Positions 2 to 27,461 of a DNA stretch of 45,994 nt are shown here, one piece after another (position 1 is the first letter of the stretch; every line of letters starts with the position of its first letter). The notes under the pieces are model-generated. The model worked only from the letters and a program-made list of their open reading frames with translations, was not told the origin of the DNA and did not search any database. The translations under genes and the position numbers were made by a program. The stretch covers positions 64,001 to 109,994 of the IMG/VR virus record IMGVR_UViG_3300035698_022074; one strand, 5' to 3'. This DNA comes from a virus.

Positions 2-889
2 CGCCCGTTCCAAACAGATCTAATTTTTGCAAACAATGAAGTTTCTGCTAGCAGAAACGATTTGTTTTTTGGAGATCTCGGGCGAGGGCGATCTTTTAGA
101 ACTACGATTGCTTCAACTGATGAACGATTCTATGATTCTATGCTGCCAAGCCTTAAGAAATATGGTGCATCCAGTAATGAAACTGTCTTCACACCTACAG
201 GATCTTTTATATTCGATCCAGATCCGAGTCCTGATCCAATATTAAGAGGTACACCTGACGGGTTTGCATTTAGAGGCGATGCAGTGACAGGAACACTAGG
301 CTCGCTAGGTGTCAAAAAAGCCGAACATCCATTTCTTTCCGATCGCGCACTAAATCCCTACCCCTACTCAGATAACCCAGCTCGTTTTAAAAACGAAGAG
401 ATGCAACTTGTCATAAGCAGCTCAGTAAACGATTATTATCGTGAAGTAGTAATCAACAGTGCATATATGCTGCGAACACTTCTCTTTGGAAGAGGTTATA
501 GATTGTCAGTTGAAGGTGCCGATCTTTATGACTCAAGAAAACTTCATCACAGTGTGTCAGGATCAACAGGTTACAAATATGGAATAATGAGCGTGTTTCC
601 ACAGTACCCTACTACCATCTTCAGACCAGGAAGATACGGACAATTTCGAGACATGCTTGAACAACGAAAAGATAGCAGAGTTTTCAAACAGTCAAAAGGT
701 AAAGACGATGTCTCGACAGTCCAAGGCCTTCTTCAAGCACCGGTCACAGTTAAGTTTGTTCAAAATGGAGAATTAATCGACGGTGGCGGACTTGATGTAT
801 TGAGTGGTTCTTCAAATAGAAGCAATGCCGCAACTTCTTCGCTACCATATGTAGATAATGTGTTTAACAACTGGACAAGTGTAATCTAA
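2..889 (+). CDS. 5'-truncated virion structural protein (reading frame open to window start; listed TTG at 62 is not the true start)
   Basis: Frame 2 has no stop from nt 2 up to the TTG listed at 62. The stop TAA overlaps the next ATG (TAATG). It sits in a co-oriented block of giant structural genes. Confidence 0.5.
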   Translation, partial: RPFQTDLIFANNEVSASRNDLFFGDLGRGRSFRTTIASTDERFYDSMLPSLKKYGASSNETVFTPTGSFIFDPDPSPDPILRGTPDGFAFRGDAVTGTLGSLGVKKAEHPFLSDRALNPYPYSDNPARFKNEEMQLVISSSVNDYYREVVINSAYMLRTLLFGRGYRLSVEGADLYDSRKLHHSVSGSTGYKYGIMSVFPQYPTTIFRPGRYGQFRDMLEQRKDSRVFKQSKGKDDVSTVQGLLQAPVTVKFVQNGELIDGGGLDVLSGSSNRSNAATSSLPYVDNVFNNWTSVI

Positions 890-1797
890 TGGCAGGTATC
901 TTAGATAACAAGAGCAGAATATTTGATACGATCCTGACAACTGAGGGTAGACGGCAGTTAGCTGCAGGATCACTAAAGTTTGAGTTCGCATCTTTTTCTG
1001 ATGCAAATACTTTTTACGAAGGTGATGTATCCAGCGGCTCAACAGACGCCGGCAAAAGGATATTCTTTGAAGCTACAGCTAATGGAAGAAATCAAGTTAC
1101 ACTTGTCACAAGTGATGATGGAGCGCTTGTACCATACATTGGGCCTGGCAGCTTAAAGATAGTTGGCGACAAGATAATATCTGGCACATCAATAGTAAGT
1201 AGTGATGATAATTTTGCGTCAACTGTCGATGGACTATTGGAGTCGTCCATCGACAACTTCCGAAACATGTACTTACTTGGTAGCAAAGATGTCTTCTCAG
1301 AAATTGATAGATTTTCTCTGTCAAAACAGTCTGGTTCGTTTCTCATCACAGATGAACTGCCCATAGATACAAGAAGAGGTGTAACGCAAGCATCTGTTAG
1401 TAGCATAGAGAGTTTTTATCAAGACAAACGATTGTCCCACATCCCTAACTTTAAATACCTCCCACCAGTAAATAAAGGAAAGACAAAACCGCTCGGAAAC
1501 TATCCAGTACCAAATCAGCCCGAGATCACGACATTCGATGAACTCTCTTCAGAGCTTGCTAACAAAGAAAAAATTGACATAACATTTCCATCGACATCAG
1601 CTGATAACAACCTAGTTATACAGATGTTTGAGGCTTCAAGTGGAAAAGTCATAAAACTTGACATAATTGACTTTGGAGAATTTACTGTCGGAGAAAACGA
1701 AAGCAGGACTAAGCAAGTCTACTTTGTGGGAAAAATCTTCAAAGATGAATTTGGCCATTCAACTTTTGTAAACATCTTTGTAATCTCATTTGACTAA
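889..1797 (+). CDS. Virion structural protein. Its N-terminal about 45 aa (ILDxxxxIxDTxLTxxGRxxLA...FA.SD) is paralogous to the N-terminus of the 10304..11026 product.
   Basis: ATG overlaps the upstream stop. It is a 302-aa ORF, and I see the N-terminal motif shared with 10304..11026 directly in the two translations. Confidence 0.6.
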   Translation: MAGILDNKSRIFDTILTTEGRRQLAAGSLKFEFASFSDANTFYEGDVSSGSTDAGKRIFFEATANGRNQVTLVTSDDGALVPYIGPGSLKIVGDKIISGTSIVSSDDNFASTVDGLLESSIDNFRNMYLLGSKDVFSEIDRFSLSKQSGSFLITDELPIDTRRGVTQASVSSIESFYQDKRLSHIPNFKYLPPVNKGKTKPLGNYPVPNQPEITTFDELSSELANKEKIDITFPSTSADNNLVIQMFEASSGKVIKLDIIDFGEFTVGENESRTKQVYFVGKIFKDEFGHSTFVNIFVISFD

Positions 1798-1808
1798 GGA
1801 AGTAAAGC

Positions 1809-4457
1809 ATGCCAAAATCTACTAAGACACCACCTACAAATTTTGGAAAAAGTACTTCGACTTCAAAGAAAGGAAAGTCAAAGTCAACTAGTAGCAAAAG
1901 CACTTTCAAGCCTAAATCTCCTCGACGCGGAAATTCTACTAGTGTCAAGATTAATCATAATAACGTCAAGGTAGTTAGTCAGAACTCAAATGGGTCAGTT
2001 GTTCTGTCTATTGAGACTTTAATAGATGAAAACGAAGCAATAAACAGTGATGTAAATACTCTTGAAGTCTCTTTAAGCAAAAGAGGTGAAGATCCTTCAA
2101 AAAAGAGTGATAAGTCTGCACCTGATAACGTGCTTAAAAATATCTTGGAAGCTTCGAGTAACGCTGATCTACTCAATAAGAAAGTCGAAAATCAGAGTGT
2201 GATCAAGCAAAAGACAGATATTACATCTAAGTTTAACAACACTACAGCTAAGAACAACATCGGCAAAAATTCAAATGAAGGGTTCCAGCAAGAAATTGTA
2301 AACCTTTCACCTGACTCTTTAGCATCTTCAATAGAGAATACACCGATATTACAAACACCGACTTTTTCTGGTGTCAATCTCACTGAAGACAGTAAGGACA
2401 CAAGTGAACTAAGCTTAGATTCAATCTTTATTGGAAATCTCTCGCCGACAAAAGCATCTGATGGACTTATCCCATTCTCACCTGCTGAAGATACACTCGG
2501 TGGTATACTTTCACCCATTAAGAAGAAACTCAATGATAATGTTAGTCCAGTTGACAATATTATAAGCAGCAACATTAAAGGATCTTTAAAGGACGTTTTC
2601 AAGGCATCAGATATTGGAAAGGGCTCAACACCTTTTCCTTCTCTTAGAAGATCTAAGAGAAAAAATGTTAAAATTGTATCCACAATCACAGTTAGCAGTA
2701 AAGATCTAGCAAACATAGGAAACACAGGAATACTAAAAATCGCCGCGCTTGATAAGAAAGGCAACGAAGTTTCATCAGCTGCATGTGCTGTAGACATTGT
2801 AGAAAAGATCAACGAAGCAGATTCCCTTAAGTCTCCTTTTGATAGATCAAAAGGGAAACTGCAAGGGCTTGAAAGGATTAAAAGCAACACAGATGACCTA
2901 GACTTAAACATAAACTTAAAAAGTAGACTGAATCGTGTTAATAGAGATTCTTCTCCAAGCGACACGCCGACAGATCTTAGTCCAGGCGGCGGCGGAAGTG
3001 GTCAACCAAGAACTCTCGAAAGGTACTCTAGGGTGTTCTCACAGTTCGGTCCGATGTCGGATTCAACCTGGAAGATAAGTGAAATGTTAGGCAATCCGAC
3101 TTCAACCCCTAAAGGTTCAACAACGATCGAAAGGATAATTGGTCAAGGATTTTCACCGACTGCTCCGGACTTTGATGATTTAATAGTGCCCTCTCCATCT
3201 CGAAATCTATCTACAGCGAATCCTATTTTAAGAAACACAGTTTCTGAGACAGACAATAGGTTTTTGTCTTTGTCTACTTTTTTAAGAAAGGGTGGAATCG
3301 CAATTAGACTTGACAACTTTCAAAGCAGTTACACAGTCGTAGTCGTCAGAAAAGATACAACGCTAAATGAGCAAAAATTCACACCCATAAGTGTTCCAGA
3401 ACCATACCAGGTTGTCAGTAATAAATCACCTGCAGTTACATTTGTTGACACACAAACCAAGCTAAATCACATCTATGAGTATCGTGCAAAAATATTTACA
3501 AGGAGAGGTCGTGAAATTTTTTCAACAGCGTATAGTCTCATTAAGTACGAGCCTCTTGTTCAAAACGCTGTAGATCTGATTGTGTCACAACCTGAAGTGT
3601 CAATTAACTCCCGCGGCATTCTTGATGTCAAATTTGACATCAACGTCAAGGTACCCAAGAACAACATATCAGCAACAACTGCACTCCTACAATCTTCAAA
3701 TTTAAGTACATTTTTTGAGACAGAAATCCGAAATCAAAAAGAAAAGCTTGAAGAAATTACAATTGTCGGCATAGAGCGAATTGACTTGACAAGAGGAGTT
3801 ACAGAAGATTTCGGGTTCTTTACTGAGACTAACTTTTCTGACTTTGCAAACAGAACATTCAATAATGTCTCGCAGCTTAGATCGCAAACAGAGTATCGAT
3901 ATGTCATCTCTGTCTATAGAAGAAAAATTGATGAAATACTACCCACTACTGTGAGAGAAGTAGTAGATAGCAAGACACAAAAAACTTATGCACTGCAGCC
4001 AGCTAAGTGGTTACACCCATCTACTCTGTCAAGAGGAGTGTTAAGAGCTAAGAAGACAATATTAGCTGCTCAAATAGATAGTGAATTCAAGCAAGGATTT
4101 ACAGGCGTTCAGAAGTTCGTCAATGTTAGTACAAAAACGAGCCTACCTAAGATTACTACTGGAACAGCAACGAAAACTTCTCGTGGAAACGTAGAGCTTA
4201 AGTGGATTGTAAAGGGCGATATGAAAAGAATTGATCACTTCGTTGTAATGGGAACACAACTCGGAATGAGATCAATATTAGGAAAAGCCCATGCACTTGT
4301 CAACACAAACGTAGTAAGGTTTGAAGATAGAGTACTTAGTAAGTGCGTATGCACAACAACATATTCAGTCTACCCTGTCTACCTTGATTTCTCTAAGGGT
4401 CAAGAAATCATTATTGGGTCCGAAGAAACAGATACACAAAGAATTAAGAGAAAGTAA
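1809..4457 (+). CDS. Large virion protein (882 aa) with a Lys/Ser-rich basic N-terminal tail and FN3/Ig-like segments. Possibly a baseplate, fibre or injected protein.
   Basis: RBS AAGGAAG sits upstream of the ATG. The N-terminal 45 aa are KSTKTPPTNFGKSTSTSKKGKSKSTSSKSTFKPKSPRR. YxYR-type FN3-like beta motifs occur later. The stop overlaps the next ATG. Confidence 0.7.
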   Translation: MPKSTKTPPTNFGKSTSTSKKGKSKSTSSKSTFKPKSPRRGNSTSVKINHNNVKVVSQNSNGSVVLSIETLIDENEAINSDVNTLEVSLSKRGEDPSKKSDKSAPDNVLKNILEASSNADLLNKKVENQSVIKQKTDITSKFNNTTAKNNIGKNSNEGFQQEIVNLSPDSLASSIENTPILQTPTFSGVNLTEDSKDTSELSLDSIFIGNLSPTKASDGLIPFSPAEDTLGGILSPIKKKLNDNVSPVDNIISSNIKGSLKDVFKASDIGKGSTPFPSLRRSKRKNVKIVSTITVSSKDLANIGNTGILKIAALDKKGNEVSSAACAVDIVEKINEADSLKSPFDRSKGKLQGLERIKSNTDDLDLNINLKSRLNRVNRDSSPSDTPTDLSPGGGGSGQPRTLERYSRVFSQFGPMSDSTWKISEMLGNPTSTPKGSTTIERIIGQGFSPTAPDFDDLIVPSPSRNLSTANPILRNTVSETDNRFLSLSTFLRKGGIAIRLDNFQSSYTVVVVRKDTTLNEQKFTPISVPEPYQVVSNKSPAVTFVDTQTKLNHIYEYRAKIFTRRGREIFSTAYSLIKYEPLVQNAVDLIVSQPEVSINSRGILDVKFDINVKVPKNNISATTALLQSSNLSTFFETEIRNQKEKLEEITIVGIERIDLTRGVTEDFGFFTETNFSDFANRTFNNVSQLRSQTEYRYVISVYRRKIDEILPTTVREVVDSKTQKTYALQPAKWLHPSTLSRGVLRAKKTILAAQIDSEFKQGFTGVQKFVNVSTKTSLPKITTGTATKTSRGNVELKWIVKGDMKRIDHFVVMGTQLGMRSILGKAHALVNTNVVRFEDRVLSKCVCTTTYSVYPVYLDFSKGQEIIIGSEETDTQRIKRK

Positions 4458-16540: not shown

Positions 16541-16585
16541 AACTGTCTTTGACAGTATAAGATCTAAACTAAAGGCGTGACAAAC

Positions 16586-19500
16586 ATGAAGAGCGAAAAG
16601 AAAAATGTCAGGATTGCACACTTTGCAGACATACACTGGCGTGGATTGACACGACACAAAGAGTATCGTGAAGTCTTTAGTAAGATTTTTGAAATGCTTC
16701 GTGAACAAAAACCCGATATCATTTACATTGGCGGCGATATTGTTCATAGCAAAACTCAAGGAATCTCTCCAGAGCTTATTGATGCACTTGTATGGATGTT
16801 TACAGGCTTTGCAAATATTGCTCCAACAGAAGTCATTCTTGGAAATCACGATGGTATTCTACTAAACAAAGATCGCCAAGACACAATCACTCCGATTATC
16901 ACAGCACTTAGCCATCCAAATATCAAACTCTATAAAGAGTCAGGAACGTATCCAATAGGTATTCCAGGGTTCAGCTGGAACGTTTTTTCTTGCTTCGATG
17001 AAGATAATTGGAGTAAAGTCCGCCCAAAACCTGGGGACATTAACATAGCACTATTTCACGGTGGAGTGCTTGGTTCAACTACTGATATTGACTGGCATAT
17101 TGAAGGAGAAGTTGACGTAAACTTCTTTGAAAGATTCGATTTTGCTCTACTCGGTGACATCCACAAAGTCCAGTTTCTTAACCCAAAGAAGACAGTTGCT
17201 TACTGTGGAAGCACAGTTCAACAAAACTACGGAGAGGATACAAACAAAGGGTATCTGCTTTGGGATATTAGGGACAAAGATGACTTTGATGTTAACTTTC
17301 ATAAAGTCGAAGGCCCTAAGCCGTTTGTTACAGTAAACTGGGAAGGGAATGTCCAGAAAACACTTAAGGCACTCAAAGATCTTAAAGACGGCTCAAGAGT
17401 CAGGATACGCACAAAAGAATCGATCCCGTCAGTTGAGTGGAAGCAACTGTGTAATGAACTAGAAATTCTAAAAGCACCATCAGAAGTTGTATCTAAAGAT
17501 GAACGACTTGTAGATACACAACAAATTTCAACTGAGGCTGTTACTCTCTTTAAGAACGATCTCAAAGATCCCGATGTGATTGTCAACCTACTTGAAGAGT
17601 ATTTTAAAGAGTCATCGCTCTCTGAGAAAGACTGGAACGATCTTGAGGCACTAACGAGAAGTTATGTCAAGTCAATATCACGGTCAGGTTCGTTGTCAAG
17701 AAGTCATAAGTGGTCAGTTAAGAAACTTGAGTTTGATAACACTTTCTCTTATGGCAAGGGAAACGTCATTGACTTTGACTCAATGAATGGCATAACGGGA
17801 ATCTTTGGTAGAAATGCTCGAGGTAAGTCATCAATTGTAGGTGCATTAATGTACTGTCTGTTTAACACAACAGATCGTGGTCCTATTAAAATCCTACACG
17901 TAATCAATACCAGAAAAGACTATTGCCGTGCTAAGGCAACAATACAGCAAGGTGAAAACCTGCTTAGGGTTGAGAGACAGTCTGTCAAAAACAAGAACGC
18001 AAAGGGTCACGAATCGGCTTTAACTCATCTCAATATCTTTAAGATTGATAACAATGGAAATGAGCTTGCTGATTTAAGTAAAGAGCAGAGGCGTGTAACT
18101 GAAAGGGATCTGCGTGAAAAGTTCGGCACATCAGATGATTTCTTGCTAACTTCACTCGCATCACAGGGTGAGATAAACGCATTTATCAAGCAGCGTAGCA
18201 CTGCTAGAAAGCACATGCTTACAAGGTTTTTGGGCCTTGACATATTTGAAAATCTGTTTAATCTTGCAAAAGAAGAGTCAAGAGAGATACAGACTAAAGT
18301 TAAATCTGCACCAGATCGTGATTGGGATTCATTGATTCACGAAGCAAAAAATGAAATCAAGGATTTGTCGAGTAGGGTTAACAGTATCGAAGATGAACTC
18401 TCTGAAATGAGACTCGATGAACAGAAACTGCAGATTAAACTAAGCAAGTTTGAAAACGCTGATGTTGTAACGTGTGCTGATGTTGAAAGACAGCAGACAC
18501 TTACAGATTCTGCAAAGAAGAGTCTAGAAAACCTTATCACTAGACGAAATGCAATCTTTGAGAAAATTGAAAATCTAGAAGTCAAAATCAAGAAGATCCA
18601 AGAAGTCAAAGAGTCTACTTCTATTGAAGATCTCAAAGCATCACTTAAAAATCAAAGAGCACTAGGTGCGTCTCTAGTACAAATCAAGCACTCTCATGAA
18701 AAAGAACAAACCCTCCTTAGGTCACAGTTAAGATCTGTTGCAAAGCTTAAGGACGTACCCTGTGGTGACTCTTTTCCAATGTGCAAGTTCATCAAGGACT
18801 CCCACAAAGATAAGCAAAAAATAGAAGCACAAGAAGAGAAGATTAAGGCACTTCTTGAGCATATTGAAAATGCTCAAGAACAGTTTGATCAAGTCATGAG
18901 TGAAGACCTTGAAGACAAGATTGATAAGTACGAAAAGATCATGCGAATGGAGTCAACACTTAAAATTGAATTGACGCAAAATCAAAGCAATGCTAAGTCA
19001 ATCAAAAGAGACATTGAAAGCCTTGAAAGCAAAATCACACAGAGTGAGCAAGATCTAGAAGATCTTAAATCTAAAATGGTTGACAGTGACATTGATCAAG
19101 AGCTTAATAATTTAAAGGCAAGACTCTACGAAGAGAAAAGTTTAATCTCGTCAAAGGATGCAAAGAGAATATCGTGTGCAAGTTCAATTGGACGACTTGA
19201 AGTCACACTACAAAATCTTAAGAGTGAGAAATCCAAGTATCAAAAACTTAAGCAGAAGTGGAGAATCTTTGAATACTTCATTCAGGCTGTCTCTAAGCGA
19301 GGTCTCCCTCTTCAGATAATCATGTCTCAATTGCCAGTTATTAATGCTGAAGTTTCTAAAATTCTTCAAGGCGTTGTTTCGTTTACAGTTGAGCTTGAAG
19401 CAGATCCAAATTCAAACTCAATGGATGTCTATATTAACTACGGCGACAGCAAGAGGGTCATTGAAGTAGCATCTGGAATGGAAAAGATGATCTCTTCTCT

Positions 19501-19744
19501 CGCCATTCGTGTTGCGTTAATCAACATCTCTTCTCTTCCTAAAACAGACATGCTAATTATTGACGAGGGGTTTGGTTCTCTAGATGATGTAAACGTAGAG
19601 GCATGCAATAGGCTTCTAGTCTCTCTCAAAAAGTGGTTCAAGAACATCATTATCATTACTCATGTTGACGGAGTCAAGGATGTTGTAGACAATGTTATTG
19701 ACATCACATGGGAAGGAAAGGATGCCAAGGTTGTTTACGAATAA
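16586..19744 (+). CDS. Fused Mre11/SbcD-like nuclease (N-terminal) and Rad50/SbcC-like ATPase (C-terminal) in a single polypeptide
   Basis: Phosphoesterase motifs HFADIHW, GGDIVH, GNHD, FHGG and GDIH are present. The Rad50 part has P-loop GRNARGKSS, a long coiled coil, a signature-like SGMEK, Walker B LIIDEGF and H-loop IITHV. Its C-terminus aligns with the T4 gp46 C-terminus. ATG 16586 has AAAGG 10 nt upstream, and the listed GTG 16577 is an alternative start. Confidence 0.85.
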   Translation: MKSEKKNVRIAHFADIHWRGLTRHKEYREVFSKIFEMLREQKPDIIYIGGDIVHSKTQGISPELIDALVWMFTGFANIAPTEVILGNHDGILLNKDRQDTITPIITALSHPNIKLYKESGTYPIGIPGFSWNVFSCFDEDNWSKVRPKPGDINIALFHGGVLGSTTDIDWHIEGEVDVNFFERFDFALLGDIHKVQFLNPKKTVAYCGSTVQQNYGEDTNKGYLLWDIRDKDDFDVNFHKVEGPKPFVTVNWEGNVQKTLKALKDLKDGSRVRIRTKESIPSVEWKQLCNELEILKAPSEVVSKDERLVDTQQISTEAVTLFKNDLKDPDVIVNLLEEYFKESSLSEKDWNDLEALTRSYVKSISRSGSLSRSHKWSVKKLEFDNTFSYGKGNVIDFDSMNGITGIFGRNARGKSSIVGALMYCLFNTTDRGPIKILHVINTRKDYCRAKATIQQGENLLRVERQSVKNKNAKGHESALTHLNIFKIDNNGNELADLSKEQRRVTERDLREKFGTSDDFLLTSLASQGEINAFIKQRSTARKHMLTRFLGLDIFENLFNLAKEESREIQTKVKSAPDRDWDSLIHEAKNEIKDLSSRVNSIEDELSEMRLDEQKLQIKLSKFENADVVTCADVERQQTLTDSAKKSLENLITRRNAIFEKIENLEVKIKKIQEVKESTSIEDLKASLKNQRALGASLVQIKHSHEKEQTLLRSQLRSVAKLKDVPCGDSFPMCKFIKDSHKDKQKIEAQEEKIKALLEHIENAQEQFDQVMSEDLEDKIDKYEKIMRMESTLKIELTQNQSNAKSIKRDIESLESKITQSEQDLEDLKSKMVDSDIDQELNNLKARLYEEKSLISSKDAKRISCASSIGRLEVTLQNLKSEKSKYQKLKQKWRIFEYFIQAVSKRGLPLQIIMSQLPVINAEVSKILQGVVSFTVELEADPNSNSMDVYINYGDSKRVIEVASGMEKMISSLAIRVALINISSLPKTDMLIIDEGFGSLDDVNVEACNRLLVSLKKWFKNIIIITHVDGVKDVVDNVIDITWEGKDAKVVYE

Positions 19745-20107: not shown

Positions 20108-20530
20108 GTGATAGTTAATGGTGTAACTCTATTTCGGGAGAGTATTGTGTTATCAACAAAAGAAGTAAATTGCTTGGGCCAAGTCCTTGATACAACTTGG
20201 GGAAGATCTTCAACGATGGGATCTCCAACGATGTCAATGAAGGGTAAGCTTCAAGGAGATGTGTTAACTGTGATATTTACAACTATTGCAACATTTGCCT
20301 CCAACGTTGCAATGAGCCAACAGATTCCAAGACTCGTAGACGAAGGACAGAAGGCATCTAACAAGTATTTGACGTTTATCAAGGACGAATACAAGGATGG
20401 ATGCGGAAAAACGCTCAGAACAACAAAGGTGAGTCACGATCATTCTGTAGAAGTAATAAGCCTACAAGGACACGTATCTCCAAAAAGAACTGTACTCTTT
20501 AGATTCACATCAATGCACGAAGTGAAATAA
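20108..20530 (+). CDS. Hypothetical protein in the position of the terminase small subunit (GTG start, start uncertain)
   Basis: The ORF exactly fills the gap and its stop overlaps the TerL ATG (TAATG), but its composition is atypical for a TerS. Confidence 0.35.
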   Translation: MIVNGVTLFRESIVLSTKEVNCLGQVLDTTWGRSSTMGSPTMSMKGKLQGDVLTVIFTTIATFASNVAMSQQIPRLVDEGQKASNKYLTFIKDEYKDGCGKTLRTTKVSHDHSVEVISLQGHVSPKRTVLFRFTSMHEVK

Positions 20531-22155
20531 TGGCGAGTGGCACTACACAGCGCCAAGTAAAAGAGATAATCAAGTGCGGCAAAGATCCAGTCTACTTCTT
20601 TAACAACTACTGTAAGATCCAACACCCACTTAAGGGTGTTATTCCGTTTGAGACTTTCCCGTTCCAAGACGACTGTGTCCAAGATTTCATTGATCATAAG
20701 TTCAATGTTATACTGAAGTCAAGACAGTTGGGAATATCGACTCTTTCTGCTGCCTATGCTGTGTGGCTTGCACTGTTTCACAAAGATCAAAACATACTGA
20801 TCATCGCTACAAAGAAAGCTGTTGCTCAGAACATCATTAAAAAAGTCAAGGTTGTACTTAATAACTTGCCAAGATGGCTGTTCTTTGTTAATATAGTAAC
20901 GAACAACAGGCAGGAAGTAGAGTTCGCCAACGGTTCAACAATTAAAGCCGTTCCAACGTCTGATGACGCCGGCCGTTCAGAAGCACTATCACTTCTAATC
21001 ATTGACGAAGCAGCATTCATTAGAAATTTTGAAGATCTCTGGACTGCTTTGTATCCTACACTTTCAACAGGTGGACGAGCGATTATTTTGTCAACACCTA
21101 ATGGTGTTGGTGGGACCTATCACGATATTTACTCCAAAGCAGAAGCAGGACTCAATGAGTTTAATGCTATTAAGCTTCCATGGGACGTGCAACCAGAACG
21201 TGATCAGGTGTGGTTTGAATCACAAACTGCAAACTTTAGTGAACGCAAAATTGCTCAAGAGTTCTTGTGCGACTTCCTTGCATCTGGTGATACCTTTCTA
21301 AGTGCAGGCGAAGTAAAGTGGATTGCAGGAACGACAATGCCACCAATTAGAAGGACTGGCCCTGCGAACAACGTCTGGATATGGAAAATGCCATTGTCCA
21401 GGCACAAGTATGTTATTGCAGCTGACGTATCTCGAGGTGACTCTAAAGATTTCTCTACATTTGTAGTTCTCGATGTAACTGAAGGTGAAGTTGCAGCAGA
21501 GTATAAAGGAAAGATACGACCCGACAGTTTGGCAGAATTGCTATCTGAATACGGCGAAAAGTACAATTCAGCCCTAGTTTGTCCCGAAAACAACTCATAC
21601 GGATACGCAGTTTGTATGAAGCTTAAGGAGCTCGGGTACAACAATATGTACTATCAATCAAACAAAGCTGTATTTATTGGCGGGTATACACCACCACAAG
21701 AGCTTTCAAAGGCTGGGTTTAATACTAACGGAGCTTCAAGAAACCGCGTACTTGCAAAGCTTGAAGAGGTCATAAGAAACAAAACGATACGCTGTTATTC
21801 TACTCGATTTGCTGATGAGCTAAAGACCTTTGTCTGGCATCATGAAAAAGCACAAGCCATGAAAGGCAGGAATGATGACCTAGTAATGGCAATGGCGATC
21901 GGAGTCTGGTTATATGATTCGGTAGGCGGATATAGCCAAAACAGTGTAGCAGAAAATATGGCAATGCTGGCAGGAATGAGCACTACAAACAAAGAGTTTA
22001 AGCAACCTGCAATTAAAGGCTCCGGAATAAAGCAAGTAAATCCATTTATACCAATTCAGCCATCAGGAAATAGTTTTGTTGGAATGAACAAGAAGACGAG
22101 ACGAGAGACAGGCGCAGTATCTGATCTTAGATGGCTTCTTGATAAAAAGAGGTAG
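20530..22155 (+). CDS. Terminase large subunit, T4 gp17-like
   Basis: Walker A KSRQLGIST matches T4 SRQLGKT. Walker B with downstream LLIIDEAAFIRNFEDLWTAL...STPNGVGG aligns with T4 IYIDECAFIPNF...TTPNGLN. A C-terminal RNaseH-like nuclease motif VIAADVSRGDSKDFSTFVVLDV is present. Confidence 0.95.
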   Translation: MASGTTQRQVKEIIKCGKDPVYFFNNYCKIQHPLKGVIPFETFPFQDDCVQDFIDHKFNVILKSRQLGISTLSAAYAVWLALFHKDQNILIIATKKAVAQNIIKKVKVVLNNLPRWLFFVNIVTNNRQEVEFANGSTIKAVPTSDDAGRSEALSLLIIDEAAFIRNFEDLWTALYPTLSTGGRAIILSTPNGVGGTYHDIYSKAEAGLNEFNAIKLPWDVQPERDQVWFESQTANFSERKIAQEFLCDFLASGDTFLSAGEVKWIAGTTMPPIRRTGPANNVWIWKMPLSRHKYVIAADVSRGDSKDFSTFVVLDVTEGEVAAEYKGKIRPDSLAELLSEYGEKYNSALVCPENNSYGYAVCMKLKELGYNNMYYQSNKAVFIGGYTPPQELSKAGFNTNGASRNRVLAKLEEVIRNKTIRCYSTRFADELKTFVWHHEKAQAMKGRNDDLVMAMAIGVWLYDSVGGYSQNSVAENMAMLAGMSTTNKEFKQPAIKGSGIKQVNPFIPIQPSGNSFVGMNKKTRRETGAVSDLRWLLDKKR

Positions 22156-22159
22156 CGCT

Positions 22160-22750
22160 ATGTTGAGAGAACTTATAAATCTTACTCTTGAGTCAATAAG
22201 TGTTTCTGACAATCTTAAAGAAAGAGGCGTCGATACTAGCAAGACACGTGTAATAGTTAGTGAAGAAGAAAGCACAGCAGTTTTCTTGCTTTACAATTCT
22301 TCGGGTCAACTAGTTGGATATCAACAATATAGGCCTGGTGCTTCTAAATCACAAAACAATGATCCTAAAGCTGGACGCTATTTTACCTTCTTAGGAGACG
22401 AAGGGAAGGGCAAGAAGATTGGTGTTTGGGGGCTGGAAACTATTACACCTTCTACACAGACAGTGTATATTGTAGAGGGAATCTTTGATGCAATTAAAAT
22501 TGCAAACTTAGGAAAAGCAGTACTTGCTGTCTTTACAAATAATCCAAAACACCTTACAAACTGGCTGTATTCACTTAGTATGAAAATTATTGCAATTTTA
22601 GACAACGATGAGAGTGAAGTAGGAAAGAAACTCGGCAGATTTGCTAGTGAGTCCTATATTACACCAGAACCCTACAAAGACTTAGGTGACATGCCTCAAA
22701 GTGAAGTTTCAAGCTTCATAAAGGAAATTGAAAGTGGCCAAAGAAGATAA
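22160..22750 (+). CDS. Primase-core (TOPRIM) paralog lacking the zinc-binding domain
   Basis: YIVEGIFD with AILDNDE (TOPRIM E...DxD), and KDLGDM, all parallel the primase at 15527 and T4 gp61 (LEGPID, VLDNEP, KDVNDM). The N-terminal MLRELINL...KERGV matches primase MLATLINS...KRRGV. RBS AAGAGG precedes ATG 22160, and the listed start at 22139 overlaps TerL. Confidence 0.7.
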   Translation: MLRELINLTLESISVSDNLKERGVDTSKTRVIVSEEESTAVFLLYNSSGQLVGYQQYRPGASKSQNNDPKAGRYFTFLGDEGKGKKIGVWGLETITPSTQTVYIVEGIFDAIKIANLGKAVLAVFTNNPKHLTNWLYSLSMKIIAILDNDESEVGKKLGRFASESYITPEPYKDLGDMPQSEVSSFIKEIESGQRR

Positions 22751-25700
22751 TCAAAATCTATTTCAGAGACTCACAACGCTGTTTCGAAGCGGTCCAGTCA
22801 TTAAGAGAAAAGTCAAAGCATTTAAAGAGCCTTCGGTCTCGTCAGCTAATCAAGTTTTTAAGAAGTCTCTGAGCACAAGTTACAGTACAGCAATGAGTGC
22901 TTACGGCACTTATGATAGAATGTCAAGATATAGTGACTATGCAGAGATGGAGTACACACCAGAAATTGCAAGTGCACTCGACATTTACTCTGAAGAGACT
23001 GTTGCTAACGATGACAAAGGTAGAGTGCTAACTGTCTATTCTGAAAACAGACAGGTTCAGAGACTACTCGAAGAGCTATTCTACGACACACTAAATGTTG
23101 AATTCAACTTGACGCCCTGGTCAAGAGACATGGTTAAACACGGCGATTTCTTCTTGTTTAATGACGTGTCGCCAGAATATGGGGTGCTTAACGTATTCCC
23201 AATTCCTGTTAACGAAATAGAAAGAGAAGAAGGGTACGATCCACAAGATCCGATGGCTGTAAGGTTTAGGTGGATCACAAACGGAAACACTATTCTCGAA
23301 AACTGGCAGATCACACACTTTAGGCTTCTGGGTAATGATGCATTCTTGCCATACGGTACATCAGTCTTAGAGTCAGCAAGAAGAATTTGGCGACAACTAA
23401 TACTCATTGAAGACGCTATGCTAGTCTATAGAATTGTTAGATCTCCAGAGCGAAGAGTCTTCTACGTTGACGTCGGAAATGTGCCACCAGAAGATGTTCC
23501 TAACTACATGGAGCAAGCTAAGACAATACTAAGAAGTAACCAAGTTGTCGACAGTCAAACAGGAAGAGTCGACTTACGATACAACCCATTACCTGTCTGG
23601 TCGAAGACACCAATTCCTCTACTTGATGGTAGAACAATTGCTATCAAAGATCTTGCAAAAGAGTTTGATGAAGGTAAAGAAAACTGGGTTTACTCAATTC
23701 AAGACGATACACAGAAGATCGTTCCAGGAAAAGTAGTTTGGTGTGGTAAGAACTATACTGCAGAGAAGTTAATTAAAGTATGGCTTGATGATGATACATG
23801 GGCCATGACAGCACCAGAGCACCCGTTTGTACTTAGGGATGGTTCTAATAAGCGAGCTGATAAACTTACGGCGGGCGATCGACTAATGCCGCTATACAGA
23901 AGACTAAGTAACAAATCTGACGGTGATTATGTTGATGATTACGAACAGGTCTACGATCCACATACAAGCAGGTTTATTTATACCCACAAGGCAATTTCAA
24001 GAACTGCGTGTATTGATCACGACAGAAAGCTTAAAAACAAAACGATCCATCACGTAAATCATAAGAAGTGGGACAATAGACCTGAAAATCTGCAGGCGAT
24101 GACATGGTTCGAGCACAAGGCACATCATGCATCTGCAAACAGAACTCAGGCACATCGCGATCTTGTTTCAATGAATAACAAGAAGTACAACAAGGGCCAA
24201 AACATGGCTAAAATGTACAATGGAAGTCTACTTCACAAGCAGCATAACGAAATCAGAAGTAAGGTTCAGTCAAGCTACTGGAATGATAAAATACACAGTC
24301 GTAATAGATGCAATAACATGTCATGGAACATACCTGCATCAATCGTAGAGTTTTCTATTCATAAGGCTCAAACAAACCCAAGGCTAACAAGAGAAAATCT
24401 CACGGAAGCCATTAGAAACAACAAAACGCTAATTGAAGATCTAGCTGTTGCTAACAGTGAAAATAGACGAGATCCTGATCTTTTTAGCTCTGCTGCAATT
24501 ATAAATGCATTCAAGCGAAATGGTGTTTGCAATAATTGGACAGAGCTCAGAGCACTTATGTCAGAAGGAGAGATTGAGTACAAGAATCACAGTGTGTCTA
24601 GAGTTGAAGAAGTCTACAAAAACGAAGATGTCTATTGCATGACCGTAGTGGGTCCGGACGGTCAAGACGACAGACACAACTTTGCAATGCAGACTATTCA
24701 AGAAGGTTCCAAGGAATCAACTCTTAATTCACTAGAAGGATTAGTTCGTCAGGACAAAAACTTAACACCATCATCGGGAAGAACGACTCTACCGTCCGGT
24801 ATCTTTGTAAAGAATTCCGTCGATGAGGATTACTTCATTCCAACTAGAGGTGGAGAAGGAGGATCAAAAATAGAGACTCTAGCAGGTGGCACAAACGTAA
24901 CTGCAATTGAAGATGTTGAGTACATCCAGAAGAAGCTATTTTCTGCGCTAAAGATTCCTAAGGCTTACTTGGGATACGATGAAGCTATCGGATCAAAGGC
25001 AACACTAAGCCAAGAAGATATTCGATTCTCAAGAACAATCAACAGAATACAAAGAACTGTCATCTCTGAGCTTAATAAGCTTGCGATTATACACTTGTAC
25101 TCAAATGGATACGAAGGTGAAGATCTTCTAGACTTTGAGCTTAATCTATGCAATCCATCAACTGTTGCGCAGCAACAGAAGCTTGAAATCTACAGAACAC
25201 GACTTGAAATAGCAGGATCCGCTCCTGAGGGTGTTGTTGACAGATATTGGATTCGAAAGAATATCATGAACCTCACAGATGATGAAATCGATCGTATCGA
25301 AAAGGGTCGCGTTGACGATAAGACATCCGATCTTAAGATTGAAGGTATCTCGCAAGAAACTAGCGGTGAATCCGACGATTTCTCTGGCGGTGGTGGAGGA
25401 GGATTTGGAGGCCTAGGCGGCGGCGGAGATTTTGGAGAAGAAGGCGAAGGAGAGCCAGGCGAGGAAGGTGAAGAACCTGCCGATGGAGAAGACGCTGGCG
25501 GAGATGAAGATGATGGAGATCTTGATGATGATCTCTTTGCATCACAAACCATAAAGGGTCTTACTCTAATAGACGAAGACGACGATGACACTGATGAAGA
25601 GTTTACTTACTCAATTAATGATGGCGATGCACCAATTAAAGCACAAGCCCAATTGGACAAAGTTCTTAAAAATAGAAAGAGAAGAAAGACTCATGGCCCA

Positions 25701-26006
25701 GAAAAGACAGGAATCCCTGATTTTAAGCGTATGGTAAATCACGAGAGACCTGGCGATTCTTTGACAGATCCTTATGATACACATCGCCTTAATCAAATAG
25801 ATCCGATGAAAGAGATTGTCGGCAGAGAAGATCCTTTTGACGCATTCCTCAATAGAAGTGTCAAACAACAAGCTAGAATATCACTATCTCTAAAGTCAAC
25901 GTTAAAATCACTTAAGAAAGAGATAAGTAAGAAGGCGCCCAGAAGTATTATTACTGAATCTGATGCTGAGGGTAATAACACGGAGAGTGAAGACACTAAT
26001 GATTAA
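22728..26006 (+). CDS. Portal protein, T4 gp20-like, carrying an about 375-aa intein-like insertion and a long acidic/Gly-rich C-terminal extension
   Basis: LILIEDAMLVYRIVRSPERRVFYVDVGNVP aligns with T4 gp20 [30 protein letters not shown]. After the insertion, DEDYFIPTRGGEGGSKIETLAGG aligns with [23 protein letters not shown]. The start is TTG 22728 or GTG 22734. Confidence 0.9.
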   Translation: MKVAKEDNQNLFQRLTTLFRSGPVIKRKVKAFKEPSVSSANQVFKKSLSTSYSTAMSAYGTYDRMSRYSDYAEMEYTPEIASALDIYSEETVANDDKGRVLTVYSENRQVQRLLEELFYDTLNVEFNLTPWSRDMVKHGDFFLFNDVSPEYGVLNVFPIPVNEIEREEGYDPQDPMAVRFRWITNGNTILENWQITHFRLLGNDAFLPYGTSVLESARRIWRQLILIEDAMLVYRIVRSPERRVFYVDVGNVPPEDVPNYMEQAKTILRSNQVVDSQTGRVDLRYNPLPVWSKTPIPLLDGRTIAIKDLAKEFDEGKENWVYSIQDDTQKIVPGKVVWCGKNYTAEKLIKVWLDDDTWAMTAPEHPFVLRDGSNKRADKLTAGDRLMPLYRRLSNKSDGDYVDDYEQVYDPHTSRFIYTHKAISRTACIDHDRKLKNKTIHHVNHKKWDNRPENLQAMTWFEHKAHHASANRTQAHRDLVSMNNKKYNKGQNMAKMYNGSLLHKQHNEIRSKVQSSYWNDKIHSRNRCNNMSWNIPASIVEFSIHKAQTNPRLTRENLTEAIRNNKTLIEDLAVANSENRRDPDLFSSAAIINAFKRNGVCNNWTELRALMSEGEIEYKNHSVSRVEEVYKNEDVYCMTVVGPDGQDDRHNFAMQTIQEGSKESTLNSLEGLVRQDKNLTPSSGRTTLPSGIFVKNSVDEDYFIPTRGGEGGSKIETLAGGTNVTAIEDVEYIQKKLFSALKIPKAYLGYDEAIGSKATLSQEDIRFSRTINRIQRTVISELNKLAIIHLYSNGYEGEDLLDFELNLCNPSTVAQQQKLEIYRTRLEIAGSAPEGVVDRYWIRKNIMNLTDDEIDRIEKGRVDDKTSDLKIEGISQETSGESDDFSGGGGGGFGGLGGGGDFGEEGEGEPGEEGEEPADGEDAGGDEDDGDLDDDLFASQTIKGLTLIDEDDDDTDEEFTYSINDGDAPIKAQAQLDKVLKNRKRRKTHGPEKTGIPDFKRMVNHERPGDSLTDPYDTHRLNQIDPMKEIVGREDPFDAFLNRSVKQQARISLSLKSTLKSLKKEISKKAPRSIITESDAEGNNTESEDTND
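23601..24728 (+). mobile_element. Intein-like Hint domain with a nested HNH homing endonuclease inside the portal gene
   Basis: Block A-like SKTPIPLLDGRTIAIKDL. Block B TAPEHPF (TxxH). HNH motif HHVNHKKWDNRPENLQAMTWFEHKAHH. Block F VYCMTVVGPDGQDDRHNF. The likely C-terminal junction is STLN followed by S. The flanking extein sequences align contiguously with T4 gp20. Confidence 0.6.
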
Positions 26007-26853
26007 GCACAATAAAAAAAGAAATGTTGGCATCATTTATGAGCTTCTTCTTAGGCATGTCTCGAGCTGCATTGTAGAAAATAAGCAGCAAGAAGCAGAT
26101 GTTGCAATGTCAATTGTCAAGCGTCATTTTAAGAAAAGCTCTGAATTATACAAGGAGTTTCGTCTATTCAATGCATTAGTGAAGACAACAGCATCGTCAC
26201 CGTCAATAGCTAATACAATCCTCTCAGAGGCTAGAGAATACGCACAGACAATAGATCAAAAGAAACTATCATCTGAAAAGACAAGTTTGATTCATAGTGT
26301 CAATCACAATCTGATCCGAGAGACATTCTATAAAAGGCATTTGCCAGAATACAGAATGTATGCGACAATTCAAATTCTTTTAAATGACTGGAGATCTCTA
26401 AACGAAAGTCGCAACTTTACTAGAATTGCTGAATTTGAAGAAAAGGTTAGAACATGGCTAATCAAAGAAAAAGTACAACAGCCTAACATTGAAAACATGA
26501 CAAATCCCGACGCTGACAAATTGGTCATTCGAATCATGTCTGAAAAGATTGACAAGAAATATCAATCGTCCCTTAACGAAGATCAGAAAAAGATTCTTCG
26601 TGCATACGTTCTATCAAGTGAAAATGAAAACAAGTCTGAGCTTAGAGAAATGCTAGAATCCGTAAGGGCAGATACATTAACGACGCTTGGCGACTACTTG
26701 ATTCGAGAAAACAATGCAGTTCTTAATGCAAAAGCAGACAGAGTTATTAACGACGTAAAGAGTGTATCAACAGACCAGATTAACGACAGTACAATCACAA
26801 GGTTCTTGACGATTTCACATCTCAATCGTACAATTACAGAGGAGGGCTTGTAA
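25999..26853 (+). CDS. Helical hypothetical protein between portal and prohead protease (possible head assembly or core protein)
   Basis: ATG 25999 overlaps the portal stop (ATGATTAA). The listed alternative start at 25963 lies inside the portal gene. Confidence 0.55.
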   Translation: MIKHNKKRNVGIIYELLLRHVSSCIVENKQQEADVAMSIVKRHFKKSSELYKEFRLFNALVKTTASSPSIANTILSEAREYAQTIDQKKLSSEKTSLIHSVNHNLIRETFYKRHLPEYRMYATIQILLNDWRSLNESRNFTRIAEFEEKVRTWLIKEKVQQPNIENMTNPDADKLVIRIMSEKIDKKYQSSLNEDQKKILRAYVLSSENENKSELREMLESVRADTLTTLGDYLIRENNAVLNAKADRVINDVKSVSTDQINDSTITRFLTISHLNRTITEEGL

Positions 26854-27461
26854 TGAGCACTGGCGTACTACTCACATCATGGACACCCTTTAACTACTCA
26901 GATGAAATGATCAGAGAATCAAGGGAAGAAAACAATGGCAAGATCATCCTCAAAGGAATCCTCCAGAAGGCAGATACTCTCAATCAAAACGGAAGAATCT
27001 ATCCGAGGGCTATTTTAGAGAGAGAAATTAGAAACTACCAGAAGTTTATCAAAGAGCGCAGAGCACTAGGCGAATGTGATCACCCTGATTCTTCTGTTGT
27101 CGAGCTCAAAAACTCATCACATATTATTCGTCGTGCCTGGATGGAGGGCGATGTAGTTTTAGGTGAAGTTGAGCTCCTAGATACACCGTCAGGGAAAATA
27201 CTTCAAAGCCTTGTGGAATCCAACGTCACGTTAGGAATTTCCTCCAGGGGCGTTGGCAGTACAAGAAGCGAAGGCGATAGACAAATCGTACAAGAAGACT
27301 TCCAGTTGATATGCTGGGATTTTGTTAGTGAGCCTTCTACACCTGGAGCATTTATGATGCGCGAAGGAAAAGAAGTCAGATCAGCAGATCTAAAGAAGCA
27401 CTTCACGACGTCTGATAGGGTTGACAGAATCTTTAACGACATACTCGGATGGGAAGAATAA
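26853..27461 (+). CDS. Prohead core protease, T4 gp21-like
   Basis: TLNQNGRIYP, GECDHP and LGISSRGVGS resemble remembered gp21 motifs (NGNGRYYP, ELDHP, LGVSSRGLG). It sits downstream of the portal as in T4. Confidence 0.75.
   Translation: MSTGVLLTSWTPFNYSDEMIRESREENNGKIILKGILQKADTLNQNGRIYPRAILEREIRNYQKFIKERRALGECDHPDSSVVELKNSSHIIRRAWMEGDVVLGEVELLDTPSGKILQSLVESNVTLGISSRGVGSTRSEGDRQIVQEDFQLICWDFVSEPSTPGAFMMREGKEVRSADLKKHFTTSDRVDRIFNDILGWEE

Follow-up and report, generated by a model that had tools for sequence, protein, structure and literature searches.

We found that the portal gene in a 45,994-nucleotide stretch of viral DNA (IMG/VR record IMGVR_UViG_3300035698_022074, positions 64,001 to 109,994; hereafter the window) carries an in-frame insert of 408 residues, which is a genuine intein, probably active and mobile. 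The insert begins with a proline, and a cysteine, Cys637 of the portal precursor, occupies the fourth position of its block F (F:4). Judging from these residues and from their covariation among relatives, we consider it very likely that the insert is competent for splicing at the boundaries defined below, and likely that it splices by the class 3 route via Cys637.

The portal precursor is encoded by a single uninterrupted open reading frame (ORF; Table 1), which the ORF list gives as 1092 codons from a TTG start. Pfam Portal_T4 (PF07230) matched this ORF at E=1.2e-70 in two stretches flanking the insert, thereby identifying a T4 gp20-type portal on either side of it. The ORF also matched the gp20 structure in the PDB (3ja7, E=2.5e-28), and the spliced sequence matched 3ja7 and 6uzc at E of about 3e-28. 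This bears out the gp20-like portal with an in-frame insert proposed in a preliminary description of the window, which was made from the sequence alone.

Our search of the protein database returned 6983 portal homologues at E≤1e-5, including six intein-less portals of 627-692 residues. The extein cores of these six are 80-85% identical to that of the window, and all of them read ...GRVDLRYNPL-SVDEDYFIP.... The window portal reads ...GRVDLRYNPL/PVWSKTPIPLLDG...LPSGIFVKN/SVDEDYFIP... instead, and in the intein-less relative L002 the sequence around the site is ...CGTTACAATCCCTTG/AGCGTTGATGAAGACTAC. Because the intein-less homologues read DLRYNPL/SVDEDYF, the limits of the insert can be placed at residues 289 and 696 (nucleotides (nt) 23592-24815): it begins with Pro289 and ends with ...GIFVKN, followed by Ser697, and its removal restores the intein-less sequence. 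No other register of the boundaries is possible, since Leu288 differs from Asn696 and Pro289 from Ser697. The preliminary description had placed the insert at 23601-24728 (about 375 residues), that is, with a start 9 nt late and an end 87 nt early. It had also taken Ser or Thr as the probable first residue and TLN/S as the best candidate for the terminus. The first residue is, however, Pro289 and not Ser292 or Thr294, and TLN falls in a variable loop between blocks F and G, ahead of the true end at Asn696/Ser697. The base composition of the insert (GC content 0.38-0.42) is the same as that of its flanks, with no sign of recent foreign origin.

The insert shows the HINT fold and the signature of an intein splicing domain, together with a nested HNH enzyme. 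Pfam Intein_splicing (E=2.4e-11) matched residues 297-642 and HNH_3 matched residues 436-460; scored by itself, the insert reached 44.1 and 25.9 bits, above the curated cut-offs of 35.8 and 24.8, respectively, so that the Hint and HNH domains of the preliminary description were both recovered by profile search. The motifs it had quoted (LLDGRT, TAPEHPF, HHVNHKK...HKAHH and VYCMTVVGPDGQDDRHNF) are all present; block F was quoted correctly, but its cysteine was overlooked. NCBIfam returned intein_Nterm and an intein-containing RtcB model for the insert, and PHROG matches in the ORF were to portal and HNH endonuclease families, the latter at E=1e-10.

An alignment of 22 inserts from the same site was the source of an AlphaFold model. 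The model of the insert has a mean predicted local distance difference test score (pLDDT) of 82.8, and a Foldseek search with it gave 34 PDB matches at E≤1e-3, consisting of 33 solved inteins and one bacterial intein-like (BIL) domain. Along the chain, the model places the strands of the N-terminal lobe, a strand-strand-helix unit bearing HH...N...N...H, an all-helical domain, the strands of the C-terminal lobe (block F), a short helix and a last strand (block G). The strand-strand-helix unit fits the beta-beta-alpha-metal fold of HNH enzymes, and the HNH histidines are at least 97% conserved among relatives. A family profile was needed to reach known structures in the PDB, namely those of the NrdJ-1, PolII and DnaE inteins (about 3e-5) and of the HNH homing endonuclease I-HmuI (1u3e, E=0.04); when phmmer was run with the insert as a single sequence, the PDB matches were spurious SET-domain ones only.

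Sister inteins at the same site begin with Cys1, and Pro1 of the insert aligns with it in register (PVWSKT-PIPLLDG versus CLSLKT-LIKLQDG). Class 1 chemistry, with Cys, Ser or Thr as residue 1, is thus excluded. In block F (DVYCMTV...), Cys637 takes the F:4 position, which in class 1 is usually Asp. The other residues expected of an intein are in place, namely a C-terminal Asn (Asn696), a Ser at +1 (Ser697) and the block B histidine (His365). The absence of an N-terminal nucleophile, the Cys at F:4 (within VYCMTV) and the Ser at +1, a position where class 3 inteins have Ser or Thr and rarely Cys, are all class 3 traits. Indeed, the lack of an N-terminal Cys combined with Cys at F:4 is the operational definition behind 1701 class 3 inteins (PMC7891396), and an insert with Pro1 and Cys F:4 falls within that definition. 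The preliminary description was therefore right to consider an active intein with unusual chemistry, but on the wrong grounds: what is unusual is the pairing of Pro1 with Cys F:4, and the Lys in place of the penultimate His.

Both splicing and the identity of the nucleophile are what we infer from this pattern. With Pro as the first residue, the usual N-terminal (thio)ester would be impossible. Instead, the thiol of Cys637 may attack the Leu288-Pro289 bond, assisted by His365 of block B, to give a thioester-branched intermediate. The N-extein would then be handed to the hydroxyl of Ser697, cyclisation of Asn696 would free the intein, and an O-to-N shift would yield the native ...RYNPL-SVDEDYF... 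portal of about 77 kDa from a precursor of about 124 kDa. The ligated junction of the spliced portal would read ...DLRYNPLSVDEDYFIPTR.

The residues assigned to this route covary among related inteins. A profile search of 1.84 billion cluster representatives gave 8019 relatives at E≤1e-3, 1905 of them at E≤1e-30. From 236 proteins we extracted 220 inteins and aligned them to the profile; 145 begin with Pro and 75 with Cys, and a further tally found Pro1 in 163 relatives. Cys occupies F:4 in 145/145 Pro1 inteins versus 30/75 Cys1 inteins (Fisher p=4.6e-27, uncorrected for phylogeny), the latter also having Asp (28) or Asn (12) there. The His at B:10 and that of block F are invariant in the Pro1 inteins (145/145 each), and Asn is found at G:7 in 138 of the 145 (Gln in 4). 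At B:7, Pro1 inteins have Ala (124/145) or Thr (19), while Thr is present in all 70 inteins of the three Cys1 groups that we tabulated. The penultimate residue, G:6, is mostly His in Cys1 inteins and never so in Pro1 inteins (0/145), where Lys (51), Arg (20), Gly (14), Ser (12), Leu (10) and Trp (7) are among the residues found. The +1 residue of Pro1 inteins is Ser in 108, Thr in 8 and Cys in 2; the profile left 27 unresolved, at least some of which have Cys at +1 at another portal site. A Cys at F:4 that is optional next to Cys1 and invariant without it, with Thr B:7 and His G:6 relaxed together, is the pattern that an obligate block F nucleophile would predict.

Several further traits mark the Pro1 clade. 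Met is found at F:5 in 98% of Pro1 versus 1% of Cys1 inteins, an Asp-Arg pair precedes His-Asn-Phe in 92-94% versus at most 4%, and a six-residue loop in block F is specific to the clade. A second Cys, in VVWCGKNY, is present in 93% of Pro1 versus 5% of Cys1 inteins, the latter having predominantly Ala. The window intein bears the majority Pro1 signature. Its second Cys (Cys339, intein Cys51) recalls the non-catalytic Cys of the class 3 intein Msm DnaBi1, which takes part in a redox-regulated disulfide with the F:4 Cys (PMC6195587).

On the other hand, a number of observations weigh against class 3 splicing via Cys637. Two residues of the class 3 triplet are replaced, Trp at B:12 by Phe367 and Thr at G:5 by Val694, and in tested class 3 inteins a Trp-to-Ala change at B:12 stops splicing. 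Since Cys F:4 also occurs in Cys1 sisters, it is by itself no proof of a nucleophilic role, and the Fisher test on the F:4 counts ignores shared ancestry. The family profile gave no significant match to the class 3 prototype, the intein of mycobacteriophage Bethlehem 'DnaB' (MP-Be DnaB; -2.4 bits), and against the PDB at E≤1 it found class 1 inteins and no class 3 chains, so membership of class 3 by descent is not supported. The replacements at B:12 and G:5 are common to the clade as a whole, with Phe 107, Tyr 12 and Trp 10 at B:12 and Val 74, Leu 48, Ile 11 and Thr 4 at G:5. Among known class 3 inteins, 6.1% depart from Trp at B:12 (PMC7891396), mutation of Thr G:5 had minimal to about tenfold effects in tested inteins (PMC5222942, PMC7891396), and splicing has been proven for a class 3 intein whose triplet deviates to MCT and whose G:6 is not His (PMC7891396).

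We considered whether Ser697 might attack the Leu288-Pro289 amide directly, as in the archaeal KlbA (class 2) inteins, with Cys637 playing a structural part only. Such a route would agree with the exclusion of class 1 chemistry by Pro1, with the occurrence of Cys F:4 in Cys1 relatives, where it need not act as the nucleophile, and with a class 3 triplet that lacks its W and T. However, known class 2 inteins are found in KlbA only (PMC3196547) and begin with Ala1, and the one studied, from Mja KlbA, has Cys at +1 (PMC2807308), whereas the window intein resides in a portal and has Ser at +1, which is poorly suited to attacking an amide directly. In tested class 3 inteins, Cys F:4 could be replaced neither by Ser+1 nor by a Cys that occurs naturally at +1 (PMC5222942), and the invariance of this Cys in the Pro1 inteins, compared with its partial occurrence in the Cys1 inteins, is what one would expect if it became obligatory once residue 1 was lost. 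We therefore regard a class 2-like mechanism as unlikely. Nor do we give much weight to the possibility, also raised in the preliminary description, that the insert is a degenerate or fixed intein which lost its N-terminal nucleophile and either stays in the portal as an extra domain or leaves the gene non-functional. A non-nucleophilic start and a missing penultimate His would suit this explanation, but the Pro1 prototype of class 3 splices efficiently (PMC2807308), and between 145 and 163 divergent relatives have kept Pro1, His B:10, Cys F:4, the block F His and the terminal Asn. In addition, the ORF and the HNH motif are intact, the insertion is precise and intein-free alleles exist, and the clade is found at no fewer than three portal sites with sporadic occupancy, both of which require viable hosts. 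The site lies in the clip domain, where terminase and neck dock (PMC4493910), and twelve inserts of 47 kDa in this domain should block packaging. Taken together, degeneration appears quite unlikely.

Even less can be said for a class 1 intein running from Ser292 (or Thr294) to TLN/S and leaving extra residues in the mature portal. Both residues are potential nucleophiles and an Asn-Ser pair does exist at residues 667-668, yet splicing there would not restore the conserved RYNPL-SVDEDYF. Besides, intein position 4 is variable among relatives (S, K, R, E, H, W and others), Thr6 is an ordinary non-catalytic block A Thr that is found in Cys1 inteins too, and TLN/S lies in a loop of variable length and low model confidence, upstream of the conserved final beta-strand GIFVKN. 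We consider this arrangement very unlikely. Finally, the BIL domain named in the preliminary description is, in our opinion, the most improbable of these alternatives, although one BIL domain was among the structural matches: the element interrupts precisely, within an essential protein, the conserved motif RYNPL/SVDEDYF, for which empty alleles are known, it ends in Asn with Ser at +1 and has a homing endonuclease nested inside it, and the best matches in sequence and structure are true inteins.

Mobility of the intein is consistent with how the site is occupied. When portals are ranked by identity of their extein cores to the window, the occupancy states interleave, with Pro1 at 88%, empty sites at 85-80%, Cys1 at 80%, Pro1 again at 79.7%, and so on. 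Mini-inteins of 203-276 residues at the same site have kept the splicing blocks and lost the HNH domain. The patchy occupancy among close portals, together with these mini-inteins, indicates homing. We infer that the HNH endonuclease and the helical domain may cut intein-less portal alleles during co-infection, whereupon the element would be copied in.

Pro1/Cys-F:4 inteins of the clade were found at no fewer than two further portal sites, including WVRNL/.../CKYGDFF, with Cys at +1, and TLPGGQF/.../TGDIDD. Examples at the former are residues 445-889 of P0064 and 137-588 of P0113, and the empty counterpart in the window lies near residues 133-134 (nt ~23124-23129). Cys at +1 is shared by about 25 Pro-start Cys-F:4 inteins, many of which also carry Trp at B:12 and Thr at B:7. 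We also observed that the portals of this family are intein hot-spots, with roughly ten distinct places of insertion, and that a single gene can hold as many as four inteins or more; multi-intein portals include P0121 (2818 residues), P0122, P0123 and P0085. A 484-kb uncultured phage (L003, LR756508.1) has three Cys1 inteins in its portal gene (264-4424), at other sites than that of the window.

The position of the insert also bears on the need for its excision. In an alignment of the spliced portal to T4 gp20, the site falls between M328 and S329, in the clip domain. Terminase and neck dock at the clip, which adjoins the inner clip loop that contacts DNA (PMC4493910). An insert at such a site would have to be excised, since twelve unexcised 47-kDa inserts in the clip should be incompatible with packaging.

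Among known systems, the window intein resembles in its splicing residues the class 3 prototype, MP-Be DnaB (PMC2807308). Both are phage-encoded and have Pro1, Cys F:4, His B:10, a terminal Asn and Ser or Thr at +1 (Thr in the prototype, where Cys F:4 is obligate). The B:7 Thr/Ser and the penultimate His, which are absent from the window intein, are dispensable in the prototype. We located the prototype in gp11 of Bethlehem by its published flanks VSQDQ/TKNTF, and not in the annotated DnaB-like gp62. The two inteins differ at B:12 (Phe, not Trp), G:5 (Val, not Thr) and G:6 (Lys, not His), and in their hosts, a portal as opposed to a P-loop ATPase. The window clade has extras of its own: Cys51, Met F:5, a six-residue loop in block F and, ahead of the His in that block, an Asp-Arg pair. 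Its endonuclease is of the HNH type, whereas 82.5% of the 1701 class 3 inteins carry LAGLIDADG (PMC7891396). The class 3 intein of AceL NrdHF, with its MCT triplet (PMC7891396, PDB 6zgq), is unlike the window intein in being split, free of endonuclease and hosted by NrdHF; it keeps Thr G:5, but the His that is invariant in block F of the window clade is missing from it.

In overall architecture, the window intein resembles the Cys1 HNH inteins found at the same site, at other portal sites and in the DNA polymerase of RcKickapoo, which show the same succession of HINT, HNH and helical parts at 32-37% full-length identity. Some of these sisters sit at the identical RYNPL/SVDEDYF point. They differ in having Cys1, Thr B:7 and mostly His G:6, with Asp, Asn (together with a terminal Gln) or Cys at F:4. 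The intein in the DNA polymerase of the cultured Rhodobacter phage RcKickapoo is a canonical class 1 member of the family (Cys1, VYDIT...VHN/S). Inteins in phage portal genes are also known from actinobacteriophages (Kelley et al. 2016, PMC5050341; bioRxiv 10.1101/2025.01.02.630785), and in inteins of phages Lys, Gly or Ser commonly stands in for the penultimate His (PMC5050341). In the actinobacteriophage survey, the portal inteins placed in the trees are class 1 with LAGLIDADG and belong to unrelated portal families (bioRxiv 10.1101/2025.01.02.630785; PMC5050341), in-frame HNH inteins are called rare (same sources), and class 3 inteins occur in four host proteins only (bioRxiv 10.1101/2025.01.02.630785).

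The origin of the Pro-start clade is less clear. We built a neighbour-joining tree from 156 HINT columns, leaving out the diagnostic positions, with 100 bootstraps. The Pro1 inteins were grouped with the same-site Cys1/Cys-F:4 inteins (best bipartition Jaccard 0.98, 58/100 bootstraps), and they formed a group on their own in 25% of the replicates; we take this grouping as suggestive, not decisive. The same-site Cys-start sisters with Cys F:4 suggest a natural transition from class 1 to class 3. On this basis we tentatively propose, without leaning towards it over other origins, that the Pro-start portal inteins arose from a class 1 HNH intein that converted to class 3 outside the WCT/LAGLIDADG lineage, in an event either independent of that lineage or ancestral-like. 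Such a conversion might have started from Cys1/Asp-F:4/His-Asn class 1 inteins, today mostly at other portal sites and in the DNA polymerase of a cultured phage (two cases at the window's site). A pre-adapted intermediate could be represented by the Cys1/Cys-F:4/His-Asn sister group at the window's site, with P0080 and P0112 as sources of Cys1/Cys-F:4 examples. The Pro1/Cys-F:4/x-Asn state would, just as tentatively, be the last step, accompanied by compensation through the change of B:7 from Thr to Ala, loss of His G:6, and gain of Cys51, Met F:5, the Asp-Arg pair and the block F loop.

If correct, this conversion would bear directly on the dispute over the origin of class 3, to which it would be a natural answer. 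One side holds that a monophyletic class 3 clade descends from a single phage progenitor (Tori & Perler 2011, as cited in PMC3196547), and the other that conversion is too improbable and the origin separate (Beyer et al. 2020, PMC7664689). Inteins of class 3, inteins with an HNH endonuclease and inteins in phage portals had each been described before, and the element is no new kind of thing. What appears to be undescribed in the literature that we searched is a very large intein family from uncultured phages and, within it, a Pro-start Cys-F:4 clade that lacks the class 3 Trp and Thr, bears an HNH endonuclease and resides in the portal clip domain. Occupation of one site by this clade and by Cys-start sisters with or without Cys F:4 offers a natural series for testing how class 3 could evolve from class 1. 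The family may also supply class 3 scaffolds for protein engineering that are independent of the WCT triplet. When the portal genes of these phages are annotated, those of 1000-2800 codons should be read as multi-intein precursors and not as giant portals.

Table 1. Portal gene of the window, with the parts of its insert (positions in nucleotides of the window).
Feature	Position	Strand	Support or remark
Portal (T4 gp20-type) precursor ORF	22728..26006	+	ORF list, Portal_T4, PDB 3ja7/6uzc
N-extein, residues 1-288, ending in ...GRVDLRYNPL	22728..23591	+	Joined to the C-extein in P0031, P0057, P0092, P0101, P0111 and P0120
Probable intein, about 47 kDa: HINT splicing domain, nested HNH endonuclease and helical domain	23592..24815	+	
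Block A, PVWSKTPIPLLDG; Pro289 is intein residue 1, scissile bond Leu288-Pro289	23592..23630	+	In register with Cys1 of sister inteins (CLSLKTLIKLQDG)
Second Cys, intein C51 (portal C339), in VVWCGKNY	23742..23744	+	Specific to the Pro-start clade
Block B, WAMTAPEHPFV; Ala362 is B:7, His365 is B:10, Phe367 is B:12	23799..23831	+	
HNH endonuclease motif, HHVNHKKWDNRPENLQAMTWFEHKAHH, between blocks B and F	24048..24128	+	HNH_3, PHROG, I-HmuI, model
All-helical domain after the HNH motif, as modelled; presumed DNA-binding	24147..24563	+	
Block F, DVYCMTVVGPDGQDDRHNF; Cys637, intein C349 (nt 24636-24638), is F:4, the proposed initiating nucleophile	24627..24683	+	
Variable loop between blocks F and G, holding TLN/S	24684..24794	+	Length differs among homologues; pLDDT 57-72
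Block G, SGIFVKN/S; Val694 is G:5, Lys695 is G:6, Asn696 is G:7, Ser697 is the +1 nucleophile	24795..24818	+	
C-extein, SVDEDYFIPTRGG... to the stop codon, with a Gly/acidic low-complexity tail	24816..26006	+	

The true start of the portal is probably the GTG at 22734 (MAKEDNQNLF...), two codons 3' of the listed TTG, which we favour because homologues begin with sequences such as MAKQTNDNLF and the GTG is preceded by an AAGGA motif. A near-identical portal is found on a 69.5-kb metagenome contig (L001) of the Joint Genome Institute (JGI), with 15 differing codons and a one-codon indel, and the JGI gene call on that contig starts later still, at Met56. The next relative shares 59% amino acid identity within the intein. 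The closest cultured relatives are far off, namely Microcystis phage Mel-JY01 (41%) and Flavobacterium phages (36%). Towards its C-terminus, the portal has an extension with a tract that is Gly-rich and then strongly acidic, of low complexity (residues 884-960, nt 25377-25607); the GC content of this tract is 0.50 versus about 0.40 around it, and the tracts of homologues are alike in character with other sequence. A minus-strand ORF within the insert (24368-24583, 71 residues) was considered and rejected for want of support.

The portal gene lies in a T4-like head module, between the large terminase (20530-22155) and an S77 prohead protease (26853-27461). A 203-residue ORF between terminase and portal (22139-22750, + strand) overlaps both; it had no Pfam match, and its only match was to phage DNA primases, confined to their Toprim part (PHROG 849, E=1.4e-31, positions 149-334 of a 435-position profile). 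In L002 the portal comes directly after the terminase, and for this reason the ORF looks inserted, possibly as a mobile or truncated gene. Between portal and prohead protease, a 296-residue ORF without a confident family match (25963-26853, + strand) overlaps the portal end by 44 nt and may, by its position, encode a scaffold or head-core protein. Upstream of the terminase, an ORF of 1055 residues (16577-19744, + strand) encodes a fusion of an AAA_23/SbcC-type ATPase with a phosphoesterase domain of the calcineurin-like (Metallophos) kind, that is, a Mre11-Rad50 (T4 gp47/gp46-like) pair in one polypeptide. Further downstream, the tail sheath protein (40269-43331, + strand) is unusually long at 1020 residues, and sheath domains match only its C-terminal ~200 residues.

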